Positions 5,310 through 41,447 of a stretch of 64,000 nucleotides of DNA are shown one piece after another (position 1 is the first letter of the stretch; each line of letters opens with the position of its first letter). The translations under genes were made by a program, and so were the position numbers. Source of the DNA: Chiloscyllium plagiosum (taxonomy: Eukaryota); assembly GCF_004010195.1 (NCBI RefSeq), contig NC_057760.1, forward strand, positions 1,951,422 through 2,015,421, written 5' to 3'. The notes beneath the pieces were generated by a model. It was given only the letters and a program-made list of their open reading frames with translations. It searched no databases and had not been told where the DNA came from.

Positions 5310-7860
5310 ATAGAGTCAGAGTCATCCATCCTTCGGTTCAGCCAGTCCATGCTGACTATAATCCCAAACTAAACTAGTCCCATCTGCCAGCACCCGGCCC
5401 ATATCCCTCCAAACTCTTCCTATTCATATACTCATCCAGATGCCTCTTAAATGTTGCAATTGTACCAGCCTCTACCACATCCTCTGGCAGCTCATTCCAT
5501 ACATGTACCACCCTCTGTGTGAAAAAGTTGCCCCTTAGGTCCCTTTTATATCTTTCCCCTCTCACCCTAAACCTATGCCCTCTAGTTCTGGACTCCCTGA
5601 CCCCAGGGAAAAGACTTTGCCTATTTACCCTATCCNNNNNNNNNNNNNNNNNNNNNNNNNNNNNNNNNNNNNNNNNNNNNNNNNNNNNNNNNNNNNNNNN
5701 NNNNNNNNNNNNNNNNNNNNNNNNNNNNNNNNNNNNNNNNNNNNNNNNNNNNNNNNNNNNNNNNNNNNNNNNNNNNNNNNNNNNNNNNNNNNNNNNNNNN
5801 NNNNNNNNNNNNNNNNNNNNNNNNNNNNNNNNNNNNNNNNNNNNNNNNNNNNNNNNNNNNNNNNTTATGCTCGCATCCAAATCATTTATGTAAATGACAA
5901 AAAGTAGAGGGCCCAGCACCAATCCTTGTGGCACTCCACTGGTCACAGGCCTCCAGTGTGAAAAACAATCCTCCACCACCACCCTCTGTCTTCTTCCTTT
6001 GAGCCAGTTCTGTATCCAAATGGCAGGTTCCCCCTGTATTCCATGAGATCTAACCTTGCTAATCAGTCTCCCATGGGGAACCTTGTCGAACGCCTTACTG
6101 AAGTCCATATAGATCACATATAAGTGACCTGCACAAGGAGGAAGGTTTGCACCTAAATTGGAAGGGGACTAATATACTGGCAGGGAAATTTGCTAGAACT
6201 GGTTGGGAGGATTTAAACAAGTAAGGTGGGGATGTGGGACCCAGGGAGATAGTGAGGAAAGAGATTGATCTGAGATGGGTACAGCTGAGAACAGAAGTGA
6301 GTCAAACAGGCAGGGACAAGGTGGGACTAATAAATCAAACTGCATTTATTTCAATGCAACGGGTCTAACAGGGAAGGCAGATGAACTCAGGGCATGGTTA
6401 GGAACATGGGACTGGGATATCATAGCAATTACGGAAACATGGCTCAGGGATGGGCAGGACTGGCAGCTTAGTGTTCCAGGATACAAATGCTACAGGAAGG
6501 AGAGAAAGGGAGGGAAGGGAGGAGGGGGAGTGGCATTTTTGATAAGAGACAGCATTACAGCTGTGCTGAGGAAGGATATTCCCGGAAATACATCCAGGGA
6601 AGTTATTTGGGTGGAACTGAGAAATAAGAAAGGGATGATCACCTTTTTGGGATTGTATTATAGACCCCCCAATAGTCAGAGGGAAATTGAGAAACAAACT
6701 TGTAAGGAGATCTCAGCTCTCTGTAAGAATAATAGGGATGGTCGGGGATTTTAACTTTCCTCTTTGTTACTTCTTCAAAAAACTCAATCAAGTTTGTGAG
6801 ACATGATTTCTCACGCACAAAGCCATGCTGACTATCCCTAATCAGTCCTTGCCTTTCCAAATACATGTACATCCTGTCCCTCAGGATTCCCTCCAACAAC
6901 TTTCCCACCACCGAAGTCCATTTAGTATCTCCCCCATTTTCTGTGGCTCCATACAAAGGCCGCTTTGCTGATCTTTGAGGGGCCCTATTCTCTCCCTAGT
7001 TACCCTTTTGTCCTTAATATATTTGTAAAAACCCTTTGGATTCTCCTTAATTCTATTTGCTGAAGCTATCTCATGTCCCCGTTTTAACCTCTTGATTTCC
7101 CTCTTAAGTATATTCCTACTTTCTTTGTATTCTTCTAAGGATTCACTCGATCTATCCTGTCTATACCTGACATATGCTTCCTTCTTTTTCTTAACCAAAC
7201 CCTCAATTTCTTTAGTCATCCAGCATTCCCTATACCTACCAGCCTTCCCTTTCACCCTGACAGGAATATACTTTCTCTGGACTCTTGTTATCTCATTTCT
7301 GGAGGCTTTCCATTTTCCAGCTGTCCCTTTACCTGCGAACATCTGCCCCCAATCAGCTTTCGAAAGTTCTTGCCTAATACCATCAAAATTGGCCTTTTTC
7401 CAATTTCGAACTTCAACTTTTAGATCTGACCTATCCTTTTCCAGTTTAGATGGAGAGGAATTTCTTAAGTATGTACAAGACAATTTTCTGATTCAGTATG
7501 TGAATGTACCTAATAGAGAAGGTGCAAAACTTGACCTACTCTTGGGAAATAAGGCAGGGCAGGTGAGTGAGGTGTCAGTGGGGGAGCACTTTGGGGCCAG
7601 CGACCATAAACGTTTTAATTGTACCTGCAGCCACCACTTCCTCGGGAAGTTCATTCCACACACGAACCATTCCTCGTGAAAAAAAGTTGTCTCTCACGTC
7701 TTTAAATCTTTCTCCTCTCACCTTAAAAATATGCCTGCTAGTCTTGAAATCCCTCACCATGGGGAAAAGACACTTGCCATTCACCTTATCTATAGCCTTC
7801 ATGATTTTATAAACCTATATAAAAGGTCATCTCTCAGTCTCTCCTTATAACTCAAAGCCA
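5310..7860. mobile_element. Scrambled CR1 LINE cluster with alternating orientations
   Basis: Minus RT ([19 protein letters not shown], 5374-6117), plus APE endonuclease (IIAITETWL, YYRPPN, 6275-6754), minus 6755-7440, plus 7443-7605, minus 3' end 7610-7860. Confidence 0.9.
5636..5864. other. Assembly gap (N run)
   Basis: 229 Ns. Confidence 1.
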
Positions 7861-24298: not shown

Positions 24299-25049
24299 CT
24301 AACACAGAGAAAAGAAAGTTACCAGTGACACTGAGTGGAACAGTTCAATAGGAAGAAGGTGGGAGCCTGAAAGATAAACAGAAGCGAATTCTGAGGATCC
24401 ATGCCTGGAGCATTTCAGTCAAATAAATTTTCGTGGGATTCTCTTTTCAAACAAGACCTTGAAAGTATAACTGAATGAATTGATGGGACCTCAGGTTAAC
24501 TACAATGTTAACACAGATTATGCTATGGTGCAGCTTGACCTCAACCTCGCAGAGGTGGAATTATTACCGACGCAGCTGATGCACAGTTACGTAGTGCACA
24601 GAAAGCTTCGTTGCCCAAGTAAAGGGTTCAGTGAAAGAACAGACCTGCAGGCTGTCCTTCTCCCCAACAGCGGATCAGTGCAGAGTACCAATGTGACGTA
24701 TTCTCGTACAAGTGATGAAGTAACCACTTTGGAAAAGACAGCACAGGGAAGAAGAATTTCAGAAAAAGGCAGCATGAGGATTACTGAAGGAGAACATTAG
24801 CTTCTGGCAATGACCCTTCAGCAGGTCGAATGCCTGAAGCCTCAAGACTGTTTGAAAATCAGCGCGTGACATTGCTTAGTACTACAGCAGCCTCGGGAAA
24901 TTCTAGGGAGCAAACGGAACATGTGGACTTTACACTGGTCACTTCTGTACTCCATGTACTCCTCTTGGATTTCCCTTAGCACCACACCCACACCATCATC
25001 ATTGGTGTCAGAATAGTCAACGCTGCAGCCATGTGGGTCCACAGCTTAC

Positions 25050-25185
25050 CTTGGAATGAAAGGGGGGAGAATTTCCCAAGAGATTGACAACAGCCGCCTT
25101 TGCCGCTAACATCTTGGCCAGCTTCTTGCTGTTAGCTGTTGCTGTCGGGAAGGTCTCATTGCCCAGCTTAACCATGATGGTGAAT
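25050..25185 (-). CDS. ADAR: ADAR1 exon 5 (dsRBD2 C-terminal half)
   Basis: FTIMVKLGNETFPTATANSKKLAKMLAA; tag|A acceptor, AAG|gtaagc donor. Confidence 0.94.
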
Positions 25186-25723
25186 CTATAGAGAAGGAGA
25201 GCATCAAGACTGGTTACAGAGTGCAGCAAAACAGGTCATACTGGAAACAAATGGCTTATTACAATATACACTCAGGTAGCCTTAATCTATGGGGACCCAA
25301 ATATCCCTTCAGGATTTACTATAAAGAAATAATTGAGTTTCTCTGAAGGTTAGAATTCACCACTTTAATGTCAGGAGTTAAATTCACACATGTATGTTAC
25401 TGGGCATGTGATTAACAACTGGTCTGATGCCAAACCAGTTCACTCATCAGCTCCACAGTAATATCAGAATGGTCTCTTTTCCAATGAGCCAGAAGGTTGT
25501 GGAACAGTCCCTCTTTGAAGACTCAAACACAAATCCAGACCGACCCTCGTGGTGTGGTATTGAGGGAGTGTTGCACAATTGGATCAAGATTTGGATAAGA
25601 ATTTAACCAGAGAGCCCATCCAAATTTTTACAAATTTCATTCACAGGAACTGAGTGTTGTTGGGTGGCCAACATTTATTGCCCAGTCTAGTTGGCCTTGA
25701 GATGGTGGTGGTAAACTGCCATC

Positions 25724-26040: not shown

Positions 26041-26794
26041 CACATCTTGAACCACTGCAGTTAATGCTGTGGGTAGAGATTTCAAGATTTTGACCCATTG
26101 TCAGTGAAGGAAGGGTGAAATATTTCCAAGGATGATAAGCAGCTTGGAGAAGAATTTGAAGACAGTGATGTTACCATGCACCTGCTGCCCTAGTTCCTAG
26201 AGATGAAAACAGCTTGGAAGGTGCTGTCCAAGGAGCCTTGGTGAGTTTCTGCAGTGCATCTTGATGATGGTACACACTGCTGTTAGACAGTATTGATGTG
26301 GGGGAAGTGCATGTTTGTGGATGTGGCGTCAATCAAGTGGCTGCTTGTCCTGACGGTGTCAAGTTTCTGGAGTGCGGTTGGCACTGCCCCCATCCAGGCA
26401 AGTGGGAAGCATTCTACCACCCTCCTGACTTGTACCTTGTTAATGGTGGACAAGCTTTGTGGAGTCAGGGGCGAGTTACTTGCTGCAGGATGACCTGCTG
26501 CTGTAGCCTCTTGTATTTATGGCTAGTCCAGTTCAGTTTCTGATCAATGGTGATCTCTAGGATGTTGACAGTTGGCAATACCACTGCTGAACCCCATTGA
26601 ATGTCAAGGGTTGATTATGAGATTCTCTCTCTTGTTGGAGATGGTCAATAATGTCTCACAGATCCAAGCAATGTTACTTGCCATTTTTCAGACAAGCCTG
26701 GATATCGTCCAGGTCTTGCTATATTTGGACATGGCTGATTCAAAATCTGAGGAGTAATGTGCAATCATTGGTGAACATTTCTACCTCCAACCAT

Positions 26795-27014
26795 GCTTGC
26801 TAACCACCTGACGCCTGGAGGAAGAATGTCTCATCTTATGCCTTGGGAACCACATGGCATCAATGTGGATTTCAACAGTTCCCTCTTTTGCCACCGCTCC
26901 CCCCGCCCCACCTTATCCCAGAACCAACCTTCCAACTCAGCACCGCCCTCATGACCTGTCCATTTTCTTTCCCATCTATCTGCTCCACCCTCCTCTCTGA
27001 CCTATCTCCATCTA
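26795..27014 (+). mobile_element. Penelope-like element fragment (GIY-YIG C-terminus and 3' region), left half of the R2 host repeat
   Basis: Encodes RLEEECLILCLG..HGINVDF, resembling the PLE endonuclease C-terminus; the repeat resumes at 31088. Confidence 0.65.
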
Positions 27015-30000
27015 TTTTGAAAAACACACGAGTGCCTTTTCAGAATCTTTAAGTCGCTCATCGACGACATGTACTCTCTGACATTACCACGGGCCAGGGT
27101 CCGGGTCGTACTGGTGTTAAATGAGGCTCGAAATAAGATGTAATATATCAGTCTGGTGTCATAACTGATCTTGGTTTTGCTCTTTACTTATTAATTTTTT
27201 TTGGTGGGCTTGGCCGGACCTCGTCTCTGGCCAGGGCCGGTCTGTGGTATTCTGCTCACTAATTACTACAACTTGTCAGTGATAAGGTGAGCCTGGATGT
27301 CTTTTGGGCGAATGTTTGGAATCGTTCAATGCTGAGGAATTTTATGAAGCTGTTATTCAAGCCCAGCCACTTGCCACAAGCGCCCATTATGAAGCCGCCT
27401 TCGGCTCAGAGCCTTCCGTCAATTCCATTATCTCGGCGTTAAGGTGGTTGTATTGCTGTCTTTGTTCCTGCCACCCCATTTCTAGAGCTTTGCTGTCATT
27501 TTTGTACCGCTCTGTAACATCGATCACCACGATCTTTTGATCTTTCTTAAATTGAAGATCGGGTTTCCACAGTGAGCCATCTTTCACGAACAATCTCGGC
27601 TCAACTTATGAACTTACTGACATGCTTCTGCAGCTGGTCTACAATACTATTCTGGCGCTTCATTCGAGTGTTTTTAAATGAATGGGCAACAACCGGAGAT
27701 GTGTGAAATGGTTTTGATTGCCGTCTCACACTTTTGGCAAGTGTTGATTCTGTTTGGTGTTCCTCTTGATAGGTGGCTCCTCGGGTATAGATTACTCCGC
27801 AGTTTAGGAGCTGTGAAGACTTTAGTTGGATTGCTGGTTTCAACCAAGAGTTTGCGATCCTGTCATCTCTGTAATACTGAATGCTTGCTCCTTGACATTC
27901 AAGCTTCCGCCACTTTTGGAATTCCCCCTCTCTCCATCCTGCATACCTGTTCGGGTGGTTTCTGTCGCCCAGCGTCCACCTCCTGAAGTGCTGGCATAAT
28001 GGCCTGGAGGTGAGTCACTGGGTCCATTTCCCCTTCACCACCACTGTGGCTGCAAGGCAGGAAATCTTCGAGTTCTTTGAGGACTTTGAGAAGACACCGT
28101 TGCATTCTCCTCTATATTGAAAGGAGACCCGTATGATCGCATCCTTGGACATCTCTAGTGCCTGGCGTTTGCAGACAATCGTGGCTGGAATCTGCACTTC
28201 TTGTTTTGGCATGCCCAGACCGCCGTTCCTGTTGCTGGCATACAGGATTCCATCGTTGGTATGAGGTGGGAAGGGGAGGAACTCTTTCATGGCGCTGTGT
28301 ATGTTCTGGTCGAACTTTATGAGTATGCTTCGAAATACTTCGGACAGGATTAACTAAAAATACAATCTGGGGACAACATGAGGTTTTAGGATTTCTAGGC
28401 ATTGCTTTGGTCAGAGAGATGCTGCCTGTATTCCTTTCACCCAGGTCTTAAGCCTCTCCTTCCAACACACCTGCCCACCGGTCAATACAGGCACCCAGGT
28501 ATTTCTCAGTATCGCCTGAGGGTATATAGAATAGAGATTCAATACACAGCTTCCAGTTAACCAAGTGATTGTACAGTAATGCCTTCCTCTTGAATGTAAA
28601 GTGGAAGCCTTTTGTCTTCACGATGTCACTATGCCTGGAGCAGCTTCAGATTCCTCACCATACCAGTTTGAGAGTAATGCAGAAGGGCTATGACATCCGG
28701 GAAAGCCAAAGTCAAGCAGTTGACTCTTCTACCACCTAGGGGCATGGTGACCCCCGGAGTCAGCCTTCTCCATAGAGCATATCAAAGGATCCAGAGTGAT
28801 GTTAAATAATATGTGCGAGAGTTTTACGCCCCTCTCAATGTTTACTGGAGTGGTATAAGTTCCGTTCCCTTCTATCACAGTTGTATTGCCAGCGTAGAGA
28901 TCCTGGATCCGGTCTACAAAGGCTTTCGGGAGATGTGTTCTCTGCAGCGTTTTCAATAGTAATTTGTGCCCAACCGAGTCGAACGCTTTTGCCAGATCAA
29001 CAAAGACAATGGCAAGGTCTTTACTGTTATGTTTCGCTCCATTAATTATGTTCTCTCGGATGACAACGTTCTCATTGCAACCGGAAGTGGCTGCTCGAAG
29101 CCCCTTTTGTCTGTTGTTAATTTTAACAGTTTCACAGAGGCATTTTCGCCATTAGTTTTGTGAAAATTCTTAGCAGCATTGGACCAATGGTTATCAGCCG
29201 CCAGCTGTCGATGTTTTTCAGGCAGTCTTCATCAAGACCATTTGACTTTTATTTAGTAATTCCGGTATTGTGTTTGATTTTAACTACAAGGAGAAGAGTT
29301 GGGATAGACGAGTTTCCTCCTCCTCCTCGTGAATGGATCTTATATCATCCAGTTTCAGGGTGTCCGGTCCAGCGGCACTGTGCTAGTCTATCCCCTGGAT
29401 AGCTGTCTCAACCTCCTCTACCTCTATGGGTTTCATCAAGGATCCATCATCTATGTTCCCAGTATACAGGGCGTATTTACCGATATGGGATTTATGATTT
29501 GGTACCAACAGTTTCTCCTGGAAACATGCCTCCAGTTCCTCTTTTGGGAGAGGACAAGCCCTGGCACCCCCATGATCTCTCGGGCTAGCTGGCGCCGGCT
29601 GGTTTTGTAGAGCTGCTGCGTCACTCTGAACAGAGCTCTAAGTGTTGCCCATCTTTTCTTTGTGCTGGTATTATTGCCAGTCCATGTGTCCTTTTTTAAT
29701 CTGGCCTCCTTGAGACTTTCTCCATTAATTGTCTCTCCCTACCATTCATGAGTAGGTCAGTAATATTCTCCATTAGTCCAACCCAAGGGCCAGAATGTCC
29801 GGGGCATTCCTCACGCTCAAAAGCTCCTCGGCTTGTTTTAGCTGGTCATCTATATCCCTGTGCTTAGGCATTGAAGCTGGTGTTCTGCGATTGGCTCTTT
29901 AGCGTGGGTTTGGTTCGTTGGAATTATCCCAAACACACACATTGTCTCAGATTCGTGCACGTCATTAGCTATGCTCACACCATTTGGAATTTGGATCTCC

Positions 30001-31087
30001 GCCAGGGTGTTCGCAAGGGTTCTGCATTTGTCAGATATTTGCTTGTGTGTTTTTGTTTTAAGGATGCTAGCGATCTCTTTGTTAATGAATTTGCATCCTG
30101 AAAAACTCTTTTCTCACTGCCTCAGGAGTGCAACTTCCTCCTGTGATCATATGTGGTCACTTCTCCCCGATTTGCCTTTGACCTGGAGTGCTATTTTGAG
30201 GCGATTTTAATTTTGTAGAACGGGGTATTGAGGCCTCTCGTGTTGACCTAGTCCAGCCTGGGTTGTAAACCACTGGTCACGCGCTGCATGCGAAGTCCCC
30301 TTCTGGAGGGGGTTTCTTACCTTTGCATACAGGGTAATGGCAGGAGATTGCGCGGTACTCTCCTGCTCTATCGCTTCATAAACATTTTGTCCGAATGTTC
30401 TTAATTCAATGCACCTTGGTGATGTGCTTGAACAGGCTCACCGTGAGGAAGAGGGTATCACAGTCTGTGCAGAACAACCAGTCAATGGGGTAATGGATTA
30501 TTACCCCCTCGGACAGACGTTCTGTCATATGTTGGTTCGATAACAACAACTTCCATGAAGGCAGCTGTCTCGGTTGTCATACCATCAATCTCGATTGCCG
30601 AATGCTCTGTGCCCTGTTTCAATATTTGATAATCCTTGTTGTAGAAGGTTTGAGTAGTGATGCTTATATCATCTGGTGGGTCCTTCTACAACATTAACCA
30701 TGTCATCCACTACTGGACGAGTCGGCTCCTTGGAGGAGTAGCCGAGCTCAGCTTCAAGCAGAGCAAGAGGTATCATCCCACGATCACTGTCTCGGTTTGA
30801 CTCGAGACTGATCTTGTTGCCAGCTTTGTCGAGCAGGTGCATTTACAATTTGCAAGGCTGCTGGGAGGTTGGTTATCCGGGACGCTTCCCAGCCGGACTG
30901 CTCCATTGAAAGTGGAAAACGCGTTCCGTTTTTTGAGTGATACCGAGGTATCCAGTTTGCTCAGACCACAGCCGTCTCGTACTTATTTCTCAGTCGTTTT
31001 GTCACTCAGCAGCCAAGGCTACCGAGCTTAGCAGCGGGGCCAACGAGGAGACATCACACAAACTATGTGCCACAAAATACATCAAAA
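27015..31087 (-). mobile_element. Near full-length, degenerate R2 (R2A-clade-like) non-LTR retrotransposon in ADAR intron 4
   Basis: Frameshifted minus-strand motifs in R2 order: three N-terminal zinc fingers (CTDC..KHITKVH; AISCHYPVCKG; DQWFTTQAGLGQHER), Myb (SQEEVALL..FINKEIASILKTKTHKQISDK), RT (WRLITIGPMLLRIF, VFVDLAKAFDSVGH, ILFNITLDPL), GGLG thumb, CCHC knuckle (CQKC..TISHISGCC) and RLE (KPDL..IVVIDVT). Confidence 0.9.
30990..31070 (-). ncRNA. HDV-like ribozyme remnant in the R2 5' UTR
   Basis: Minus strand GTC-TCCTCGTT-GGC-CCCGCT-GC-TAA-[GCTCGGTAGC CTTG GCTGCTGAGT hairpin]-GAC-AAA matches the P3/L3/P1'/P4/J4-2 layout of R2 ribozymes. P1.1 GG appears mutated and P2 is uncertain. Confidence 0.7.
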
Positions 31088-31270
31088 CATCATCCCCCCC
31101 ACCCATTTATCTCTCCACCCATCCCGGCCTACAAGCCTCATTCCTGATGAAGGACTTTTGCTCGAAATGCCGATTCTTGTGCTCCTTGGATGCTGCCTGA
31201 CCCCGCTGTGCTTTTCCAGCGCCACACTCTCTACTCTGATCTCCAGCATGTGCAGTCCTCACCTTTTCCT
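31088..31270 (+). mobile_element. Penelope-like terminal repeat with degenerate hammerhead core, right half of the R2 host repeat
   Basis: CTGATGA-AGGACTTTTGCTC-GAAA at 31144-31167, followed by the family terminus gatgctgcctga...ctgatctccagc...cctcac. Confidence 0.65.
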
Positions 31271-31509: not shown

Positions 31510-31676
31510 CTAGGGTCATGGGGAGGACCGCTCTGTGATACAAGTTGAAATTCACATGCATTGCCTGACTTCTGTGCATACTCCATTAACATGCAGACTG
31601 GATTTTTCCCTGCGGGCAGCGAGGGTTGAGACAGAGTACACGGTTCAGTCTTCATTTCACTTGGAAGAGCTGTACA
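31510..31676 (-). CDS. ADAR: ADAR1 exon 4 (dsRBD2 N-terminal half)
   Basis: [34 protein letters not shown]; pyrimidine tract + cag acceptor, donor AG|gtatgt. Confidence 0.92.
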
Positions 31677-39375: not shown

Positions 39376-40387
39376 AAGACTGTGACACAGAGAAAGAAAA
39401 GTCTGTATTTTGTGCTACCCCTGTCCACAGCTCCCAGTACAATTCAGCTCAGGGACCTAAGAAATTCTAAGAGCTTTTCCTTTTTACTTTGGTGGTAACC
39501 AGCAGTATACAGGACCTCAATCTCTCTGAAAGCACATCATACCAATGCTCCATTCAGGAAACAAACACGATGAACTAAATAAGAAGCTTGCTTTGAGTGT
39601 TATTTGCTCTGCAGAGCTGCCACCTGCCAGCTGGTGTAAACCATTAAATATATCCTGACCACACCATTCTCCAAGTCTTTTCATTGTGCAAAATGAACAC
39701 TGCATGTTCACAACTGCACACAGAATTTGACAGCCATTCAGCCCAAGAGATCCAAGCCAGTGTTTATACCTCACCCCACCAACATGTTCTTCTACATTTC
39801 CTCTCATGCAGGTATCCATCCAGCTTTACCCAACGTATGTTGGTGCTGAGCTATCAATTCCGCTCTAGGGCAAATAGGTAGATGTAATAAAAGTTGTGAG
39901 ACCGCAGAGAACAAAAAGATTACTGCAAGTTATCTGCTGCACAATTACATTTTAATTAAGAAAACGCATTGAAACCTGTGGCTTCAATTACTTGTCGTCA
40001 TATCGCTCCAGAGACCAGAACAATTAGAATTTCTGGAAACAGCACCACGGTAAGCAATGAAGGTAACCCCAAAACTGCCAGAATCCATATTTCTTCAGGG
40101 CAGGTAACTAGCGAATGGTGCTGGTTGAAAGAATAAGGGTCAGTCCTAACTGGCATCAGCAGGCATTTCAGCACACCAAGCACGAATTCTGATAGCACCG
40201 GACTCATCTTAAATGTATGTCAAGAGCACACTGGAGGGAATTAAAGAACTTGGAAATAAAATGTATCCTGTATTTAAATTTTCAATATAAATTTTAAATA
40301 TAAAATTTAATGCTATTTCACACCATTTGGTTGTTGCAATTTTTTTTTTTTAAAGTTAATAGAAACAAGTTTATCACTAACAGCTCA

Positions 40388-41447
40388 TCATTGGCTTGCT
40401 GAAAGAAAACAGAGGATTGTAGTTGATGGAACATGGTCATCTTGGTGTCCAGTTACTAGCGGCGTACCGCAAGGGTCGGTGTTGGGTCCACTGCTGTTCG
40501 TCATTTTTATAAATGACCTGGATGAGGGCTTAGATGCGTGGGTTTGTAAATTTGCAGACGACACTAAGGTCGGTGGAGTTGTGGATAGTGACGAAGGATG
40601 TAGTAGGTTGCAGAGAGACATAGATAGGATGCAGAGCTGGGCTGAGAGGTGGCAAATGGAGTTTAATGTGGACAAGTGTGAGGTGATACACTTTGGACGG
40701 AGTAAACGGAATGCAAAGTACTGGGCTAATGATAGGATTCTTGGGAGTGCAGATGAGCAGAAAGATCTCGGTGTCCATGTACACAGATCCCTGAAAGTGG
40801 CCACCCAGATTGACATGGTTGTTAAGAAGGCATACAGTGTTTTGGCCTTTATTAATGGAGGGATTGAGTTCCTGTACCAGGAAGTTATGCTGCAGCTGTA
40901 CAAAGCTCTGGTACGGCCACATTTGGAGTATTGTGTACAGTTCTGGTCACCGCATTATAAGGAGGATGTGGAAGCTTTGGAAAGGGTGCAGAGGAGATTT
41001 ACTAGGATGTTGCCTGATATGGAAGGAATGTCTTATGAGGAAAGGCTGAGGGCCTTGAGGCTGTTCTCGTTGGAGAGAAGAAGGTTGAGAGGTGACTTAA
41101 TAGAGACGTACAAGATAATCAAAGAGTTAGATAGGGTGGACAGGGAGAGCCTTTTTCCAAGTATGGGGGCGGCAAACACGAGGGGACACAACTTTAAAGT
41201 GAGGGGAGATAGGTATAAGACAGATGTCAGAGGTAGTTTCTTTACTCAGAGAGTAGTAAGGGTATGGAAAGCTTTGCCTGCATCGGTAGTAGATTTGCCA
41301 AGTTTAAGTGCATTTAAGTCGTCATTGGACAGGCAAATGGACGTACATTGAATAGTGTAGGTGGGATGGGCTTCAGATTAGTATGACAGGGCGGCGCAAC
41401 ATCGAGGGCCGAAGGGCCTGTACAGCGTTGCAATGTTCTATGTTCTA
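40388..41447 (+). mobile_element. Young 5'-truncated CR1 LINE with open RT C-terminal frame
   Basis: ORF 40479..41351: GPLLFVIFINDL, KFADDTK, LEYCVQFWSP, FFTQRVV; (TGTTCTA)n tail. Confidence 0.93.

Follow-up and report, generated by a model that had tools for sequence, protein, structure and literature searches.

The window, a 64-kb stretch of the Chiloscyllium plagiosum genome, carried exons of the ADAR gene on the minus strand. Domain matches placed the z-alpha exon at 38847-37345 and a dsrm exon at 33251-32979. These were followed by an exon encoding the first half of the second dsRNA-binding domain (31510-31676, limits taken from the AG/GT signals; Pfam dsrm, E 1e-5) and by a frame with the next exon, encoding the second half of the same domain (25044-25217; Pfam dsrm, E 9.6e-7). 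The deaminase motifs were located farther downstream in the window. A dead copy of a lineage-A R2 element lay in the intron that separates the two exons encoding the second dsRNA-binding domain (31676-31510 and 25217-25044), in the sense orientation of ADAR. It occupied positions 27015-31090 of the minus strand (4076 bp), with both ends set against 40 family copies. The first-pass annotation had described a near full-length minus-strand R2A-type element in ADAR intron 4. The element itself stood, with its 5' limit of 31087 being three bases short, and the flanking dsrm exons supported the intronic location; the number of the intron is right if the big ADAR exon is exon 2, presumably as in human ADAR1. 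The insertion split a repeat into an upstream half (31094-31265) and a downstream half (26794-27014), both on the minus strand and both recognized from contigs of other repeat copies, which linked 27006-27012 to 31095-31134 and thereby identified both flanks as one repeat. Its earlier designation as Penelope-like was supported, although short of proof, by longer homologues reaching an ORF that matched GIY-YIG weakly, at E 3e-4 and 2e-3, under the Pfam cut-off. Judging from the other repeat copies, about 40 target bases appeared to be missing at the 5' junction. Directly past the 3' end, the bases TAG (27012-27014, minus strand) were present as first described, and base counts at the family junctions marked them as the first target bases past the nick. 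Neither flank was 28S rDNA, since no Rfam family reached the gathering score anywhere in the 64-kb window, and the copy did not sit at the canonical 28S insertion site. Contigs of a related species (about 95% identical) bridged both junctions, so the insertion is old and predates that split.

Analysis of the window copy revealed three zinc fingers, a Myb domain, a reverse transcriptase (RT), a CCHC knuckle and a restriction-like endonuclease in R2 order, all on the minus strand, in agreement with the domain set first reported. As in other R2 elements, these domains belong to a single ORF, which is broken in this copy. The 5' UTR contained a putative HDV-like ribozyme core (P2, P3, P1.1 and P4; 30993-31057), recognized in an alignment of family copies. 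It was followed by zinc finger 3 (CCHH, 30409-30474), by zinc finger 2 (CCHC type, 30325-30393), within which lay a stop, and by zinc finger 1 (ZnF1; about 30220-30297), whose frame was broken by a 2-base deletion. All three were located by motifs; in addition, the N-terminal frame of a family copy, L133, aligned to R2Tg (9dou; E 1.3e-30) over its three fingers and its Myb domain. Motifs (about 30150-30025) and the R2Tg alignment placed the Myb domain of the window copy at approximately 30020-30160. The RT, with its 6a loop and thumb and many frameshifts, extended over approximately 28200-29480 (motifs 29376-28213) according to Pfam and motifs. The longest clean frame matched Pfam RVT_1 with an E of 2.6e-11, and the catalytic FADD was FPDV in this copy. 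A C-terminal CCHC zinc knuckle was found by its motif at 27686-27739. The PD..D motifs at 27274-27569, which gave no Pfam match, were assigned to the restriction-like endonuclease on the pattern of R2 proteins. Family comparison assigned the 3' UTR, with the conserved terminus of the family, to 27015-27260. The breakage by stops and frameshifts noted earlier was extensive: comparison with 14 family copies showed 28 indels across the coding span, of which 24 shift the frame, and the copy was 8.9% diverged from its own subfamily majority. On its own, this copy in the ADAR intron is an unremarkable dead fossil, and nothing points to a function for it.

The R2A membership was borne out in three ways. 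The RT was placed in a phylogeny (FastTree, 80 rows, 483 columns, with no labelled NeSL, R4, HERO or Utopia rows), in which it grouped with 28S-inserted R2. The window copy, 19 family copies and three C. punctatum proteins formed one clade (support 1.0), which joined other shark proteins, then a 28S-flanked shark lineage (0.991) and the turtle protein P0002 (1.0). The family RT sequences were translated along a template protein and may be drawn toward it, but the three real proteins shared the clade. In addition, when a family RT frame was ranked against the PDB, the best relatives were 9nl2 (1e-100) and R2Tg (3e-93), ahead of 8gh6 (1e-39) and L1 (3e-14). The third line was the R2Tg alignment of the three fingers and Myb described above.

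Searches with either end of the element gave at least 40 scored places each (the best 40 of 66 and 40 of 53 candidates) on many chromosomes, with identities of 68-86%. Tabulation of the flanks yielded 51 independent 3' junctions of the family, of which 49 were outside 28S (33 in the main set and 16 found later) and 2 were at the canonical 28S site, a ratio of off-target to on-target copies that is biased by purging from rDNA. Duplicates (L141, L146, L182 and L183, with L006, L009 and L022 being the same places) and copies without a 3' end (L127, L128, L129 and L139) were removed, and remnants of about 40-50 bases (L196-L199) were excluded from the 49. The proposal that the window copy was a rare full-length off-target insertion proved wrong in view of the 49 independent non-28S junctions, and the many dispersed copies outside 28S ruled out a one-off ectopic event. 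The two canonical junctions belonged to different subfamilies: L125, from the window's own subfamily, had decayed 28S on both sides, and L126 had a short 28S tail. Of 35 matches to a 3'-terminal pattern that captures roughly three-quarters of the 3' ends, one continued into 28S. No young 28S-resident member of the family was seen at any of the assembly's 27 exact 28S sites (0/27), and many R2-plus-28S pieces were present on the chromosomes. Gene models of the lineage were found on scaffolds of 0.26-11 Mb in C. punctatum (8) and S. torazame (3). The copies formed a ladder of subfamilies, with identities of 81-86% within the window's own, which is the oldest, and 85-93% within the youngest. The N/S ratio was 0.33-0.40 for fixed differences between subfamilies and 1.7-2.4 for private differences, which indicated working masters and dead daughters. 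Flanks common to several copies occurred solely where decayed sequence was repeated in blocks with 99-100% identity, and these blocks look like duplications of later date. No R2-type 3' transduction was seen among the family copies in this incomplete census.

Of 32 5'-intact family copies, 28 retained some of the 28-base stretch of 28S lying just upstream of the target site; the window copy was among those lacking the leader, with at most 3-4 bases of it. Young copies carried a fresh leader in front of a diverged inner leader. For 28S-resident R2, PMC3774820 accounts for the same pattern by elements that insert into 28S and are cleaved at -28. The masters were likely located in rDNA, because most 5'-intact copies keep the 28S leader and the zebra-shark relative is inserted in 28S. 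The aligned copies point to an HDV-like ribozyme fold at the 5' end of the family, with P1 derived from 28S, for which cleavage is predicted. Its helices were paired in 91.5% of 378 cells, with both partners altered in three pairs; a score as high was reached by 2 of 500 shuffles, and related sequences can beat shuffles without any structure. The ribozyme was not detected by Rfam in the 64-kb window. Two P2 pairs and one P1.1 pair were broken in the window copy, which makes cutting of the ADAR pre-mRNA by its ribozyme unlikely.

The off-target sites were nonrandom in three respects, namely TA past the 3' end, an upstream 28S-like motif and a hot spot in CR1. At 33 non-28S junctions, T was found at +1 in 31, A at +2 in 27 and G at +3 in 17. 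The heptamer of 28S positions -25 to -19, with at most one mismatch, was located 8-22 bases upstream of the 5' junction in 9 of 27 non-hot-spot sites (background 0.019, P 1e-9), whose flanks had been inspected before testing. L129, which has an inverted CR1 flank, was excluded from these sites, and L145 was positive initially and lost the motif after its junction was corrected. Before this correction, the words starting at -25 and -24 stood out among the 34 seven-base words of 28S -40 to -1 (10/27, next best 3). The reverse complement of the heptamer was found in 0/27 and the reversed heptamer in 1/27 of the sites. Among 12 held-out non-hot-spot sites, in which the four tiny remnants were retained, the motif occurred once (P 0.21), exactly at -25 to -19, giving 10/39 over both sets. 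In R2Tg, ZnF1 and the 6a loop read this 28S stretch, which is also retained in the off-target logo of that protein (PMC12222951), and A-clade binding has been placed upstream of the nick (PMC11204384). ZnF1 of the window copy retained the Gln and Arg equivalent to the R2Tg readers of bases -21/-20. Regular target-site duplications were absent from the family junctions, with two long ones, at L145 and L193.

The hot spot, a single site in the CR1 RT, accounted for 16 of the 49 non-28S junctions. These 16 insertions were independent because their 5' junctions and truncations differed. All 14 hot-spot copies with a readable 5' flank were in a CR1 subfamily that bears the heptamer one base off register. 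Exact empty CR1 sites numbered 1232 in the motif-bearing subfamily versus 4252 in one sister subfamily without the motif, counts that cover two CR1 subfamilies and vary with subfamily age. At the window site, the upstream target was deleted, and other copies of the repeat carried at this place a sequence resembling 28S, displaced by one base; the motif of the window copy would thus be known solely from other copies of the split repeat.

The lineage of R2-1_CPl and R2-1_CPu (P0001; L089-L102), a sister shark clade with about 45% RT amino-acid identity to the window family, served as a control in the same genome. It uses the same 28S site, and a copy of it lay directly before the majority of the 27 exact sites in the assembly. 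Among 70 matches to its 3' end, 23 continued into 28S, 19 were unique off-target junctions and 16 were copies of two amplified insertions; 8 matches joined to another R2 start or unclear and 4 probably due to chance were set aside together with the amplified copies. This amounted to at least 21 off-target events (19 unique and two amplified), several of them full-length, and showed that leakage is general in this genome, since a lineage resident in 28S also leaks. Unlike the window family, the sister lineage is still 28S-resident (23/70), its dispersed full-length copies lack a 28S leader and start directly with the R2 5' end, and no CR1 hot-spot junction was seen among its 70 matches. On chromosomes, stray 28S-flanked copies stood to off-target copies as 2:49 in the window family and as 12:17 in the sister lineage (Fisher P 5e-5), from censuses made with different queries. 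When scaled to stray 28S-flanked copies in this way, the window family was apparently leakier. The off-targets kept TAGC in 12/19 sister junctions versus 7/25 in the window family (P 0.03). The upstream motif was found in 0/12 sister off-targets at one mismatch and its 5-base core in 3/12 (background 0.011).

The preferred interpretation, to which we assign a probability of roughly 60%, is that the window copy is a dead shark R2A copy written by the R2 protein into a 28S look-alike site of a Penelope-like repeat, from a 28S master of a lineage that targets more loosely than its sister. The master would have been co-transcribed with rRNA and freed by the ribozyme at -28; the 28S leader expected from such cleavage was present in the copies. 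The protein would then have bound an upstream motif resembling 28S -25 to -19 and nicked before TA(G). The motif was enriched at the sites, and R2Tg is the model for the binding. Reverse transcription began at the exact R2 3' end, as the uniform 3' ends of the copies showed. The 5' end may have been joined with the loss of about 40 target bases in the window copy, as suggested by the other repeat copies, and the decay that followed was neutral. The earlier idea of relaxed specificity thus holds in a weak sense, that of a leaky lineage which is guided by 28S-like sequence and still enters 28S. Changed specificity or a loss of 28S targeting was unsupported: there were two canonical 28S copies, most 5'-intact copies had 28S leaders, and the sister lineage leaked too. 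The fossils of the window family thus reveal a vertebrate R2 lineage that was leaky yet guided by sequence, neither a one-off nor fully retargeted.

It is rather doubtful, although it retains some weight, that the same mechanism operated at an ordinary leak rate, with the lineage extinct in rDNA, its on-target copies purged and the strays left behind. The at least 21 sister events and the age of all family copies (4-12% from the subfamily majority) fit this account, as do the canonical position of R2-1_STig in the zebra shark and the remark, in the accessible text of PMC13580325, that extant locations can mislead about specificity. However, stray 28S-flanked copies escape rDNA turnover too, yet their ratio to off-targets differed 17-fold between the lineages, a difference that presumes stray 28S copies to have arisen and persisted at equal rates over time. 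The more frequent TAGC and the lack of hot-spot junctions among the 70 sister matches also spoke against it. An rDNA-independent family, a vertebrate counterpart of R2NS in which dispersed copies transcribed by host read-through and freed by their own ribozyme and leader acted as masters, is unlikely. The 49 of 51 junctions outside 28S, the recurrent CR1 target, the leader needed for P1 on dispersed copies, and a ladder of subfamilies shaped by purifying selection, none of them with a live copy seen in the rDNA of the assembly, would agree with it. Against it stood the canonical junctions in two subfamilies, the fresh leaders in front of decayed ones, the neutral private mutations, and common flanks confined to the blocks that look like later duplications. 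Passive transport of R2 RNA or DNA from rDNA, by CR1 or Penelope enzymes in trans or by DNA rearrangement, is very improbable: R2-plus-28S pieces were many, CR1 and Penelope abundant and some copies duplicated as blocks, but the exact 3' ends of R2, which ran into TA with neither a 28S tail nor poly(A), the R2-type upstream motif and the lack of a regular target-site duplication, apart from the long ones at L145 and L193, argued against it. Membership in another restriction-like-endonuclease clade (NeSL, R4, HERO or Utopia), for which the absence of labelled members from the tree leaves room, was refuted in practice because the family has canonical 28S junctions and nests with 28S-flanked shark R2 (0.991) within vertebrate R2, and its best PDB relatives, 9nl2 and R2Tg, and the alignment of its fingers and Myb to R2Tg pointed the same way.

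A bolder reading, less likely than not, is a vertebrate R2 lineage of truly broadened specificity. Such an enzyme would have read little beyond -25 to -19 and TA, and over a succession of its subfamilies it would have exploited one CR1 subfamily as another multicopy target in addition to 28S. The intact relative in the zebra shark may even now act in this way, which would make it a natural retargetable enzyme.

Published systems are compared here from the accessible parts of the cited papers. R2-1_STig of the zebra shark, grouped with R2-1_SCa and R2-1_SAc as the closest published relatives, is of lineage A and has a near-matching 5' UTR, ribozyme and N-terminus, as compared by eye over its first 400 letters (PMC13188248 Table S2). 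It was published as an intact 28S insertion, whereas the window lineage in C. plagiosum consists of dead copies with 49/51 junctions outside 28S. The same source lists shark R2 from retained matches that were 28S-flanked, including a white-shark row with an empty upstream-28S cell, and no discussion of off-rDNA copies was found in its accessible text (PMC13188248). R2Tg/TaGu and the 9nl2 protein (PDB 9dou, 9nl3 and 9nl2) have the same domain order and the ZnF1 Gln/Arg of the window family. The off-targets of R2Tg prefer 28S -25 to -19 and TAGC-like downstream bases, similar to the sites of the window family, but in cells R2Tg is more than 99% on-target, unlike the window family (PMC12222951). 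Two non-specific R2 families, both from flatworms, have been named (PMC5035012). Like the window family, R2NS-1_SMed and R2NS-1_CSi are R2-clade copies outside rDNA, and the renamed oyster element R2-1_CGi has both 28S and non-28S junctions; these elements are from invertebrates (flatworm clades D and C, and oyster) and were called non-specific (PMC5035012). The window family, in contrast, is a vertebrate lineage-A family that retains the 28S leader and 28S-like site choice. R2NS implies no 28S insertions and no target preference, whereas two canonical junctions, TA, the upstream motif and the CR1 hot spot were found here. Cockroach R2-like non-specific elements form a separate clade (PMC7650587), and very few R2 lack the canonical site, with extant locations being misleading (PMC13580325). 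No paper on dispersed shark R2 or the CR1 hot spot was found in the literature covered, which was that outside most subscription journals and Repbase.

R2 normally inserts solely in ribosomal RNA genes, and lineage-A R2 proteins are under development for gene insertion into human rDNA. To our knowledge, the off-target rules of lineage-A R2 have come solely from cell assays of bird proteins. The C. plagiosum genome provides a natural record of about 50 misfires of the window family and about 20 of the sister lineage, with site features that match the R2Tg off-target logo, and together these strays likely document the natural misfiring of an enzyme family that is employed for gene insertion. Two lineages of apparently unequal leakiness in one host, together with an intact published relative, make the determinants of R2 fidelity testable, and likewise the drift of R2 lineages toward lost specificity, hitherto described in invertebrates only. 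No residue that would explain the extra leakiness was found in ZnF1, where the Gln/Arg pair was kept, or in the 6a loop. The Lys-Asp of the R2Tg 6a loop was Arg-Lys in the window family, and the aspartate was absent in both shark lineages.

The 5' flanks of three R2 loci, L109, L127 and L210 (C17:39.527 Mb, C31:11.210 Mb and C20:54.99 Mb in the examined shark genome, G000), apparently corresponded to one site in a repeat other than that of the CR1 hot spot. Of the three insertions there, two belong to the window's family and the third to the 28S-resident sister lineage; judged from the flanks, the site looks like an additional hot spot common to both. Two copies of the window's family, L028 and L200, shared one insertion site in a CR1 region other than the hot spot, and their 3' ends were followed by TG, not TA. 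Long direct repeats of the target, of about 50 and 105 bases, flanked the 5'-truncated copies L145 and L193, respectively, unlike the rest of the copies.

The full-length dispersed copies of the sister lineage (L202, L204, L206, L208-L211, L214, and L215) lacked a 28S leader; their sequence started directly with the 5' terminus of the element itself. These leaderless ends suggest that the ribozyme of the sister lineage may cleave at a different position. Sister-lineage R2 was also found in head-to-tail tandem at L165, L169, L170, L172, and L173. One off-target insertion of this lineage was present in 14 copies, on C8 (32.25, 32.27, 35.52, 53.74, and 9.50 Mb) and on nine small contigs; all of them shared one 3' flank, and the insertion was therefore amplified together with its host sequence. 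Two sets of decayed R2 pieces (L123/L146/L182 and L107/L141/L183) were duplicated on different chromosomes at 98.6-100% identity, and the duplicated stretch included as much as 4 kb of flanking sequence; the blocks may have been duplicated recently or carried along by another element, or they may be an assembly artefact.

Many fragments combining R2 with 28S sequence were located on ordinary chromosomes (L061-L086), with 28S tails ranging from 39 to more than 1000 bases; these fragments are stray pieces of rDNA. At C10:85.00 Mb (L067/L088), a very short R2 3' end lay at the 28S site with 28S-like sequence upstream, and this terminus was closer in likeness to the window's family than to the sister lineage. 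On sequence likeness, L067/L088 perhaps represents a third R2 lineage. P0127, from a 4.5-kb contig, formed a separate branch as well.

In C. punctatum and S. torazame, several gene models on large scaffolds (P0142, P0121-P0131, and P0149) contained pieces of the window-family R2 lineage, and one of them formed a fusion with a model for a class C GPCR. These pieces are likely dispersed copies of that lineage in other sharks.

The window itself also contained fragments of CR1/L2-type reverse transcriptase sequence in other ADAR introns or upstream, at 40311-41351 on the minus strand and at 5374-7679.
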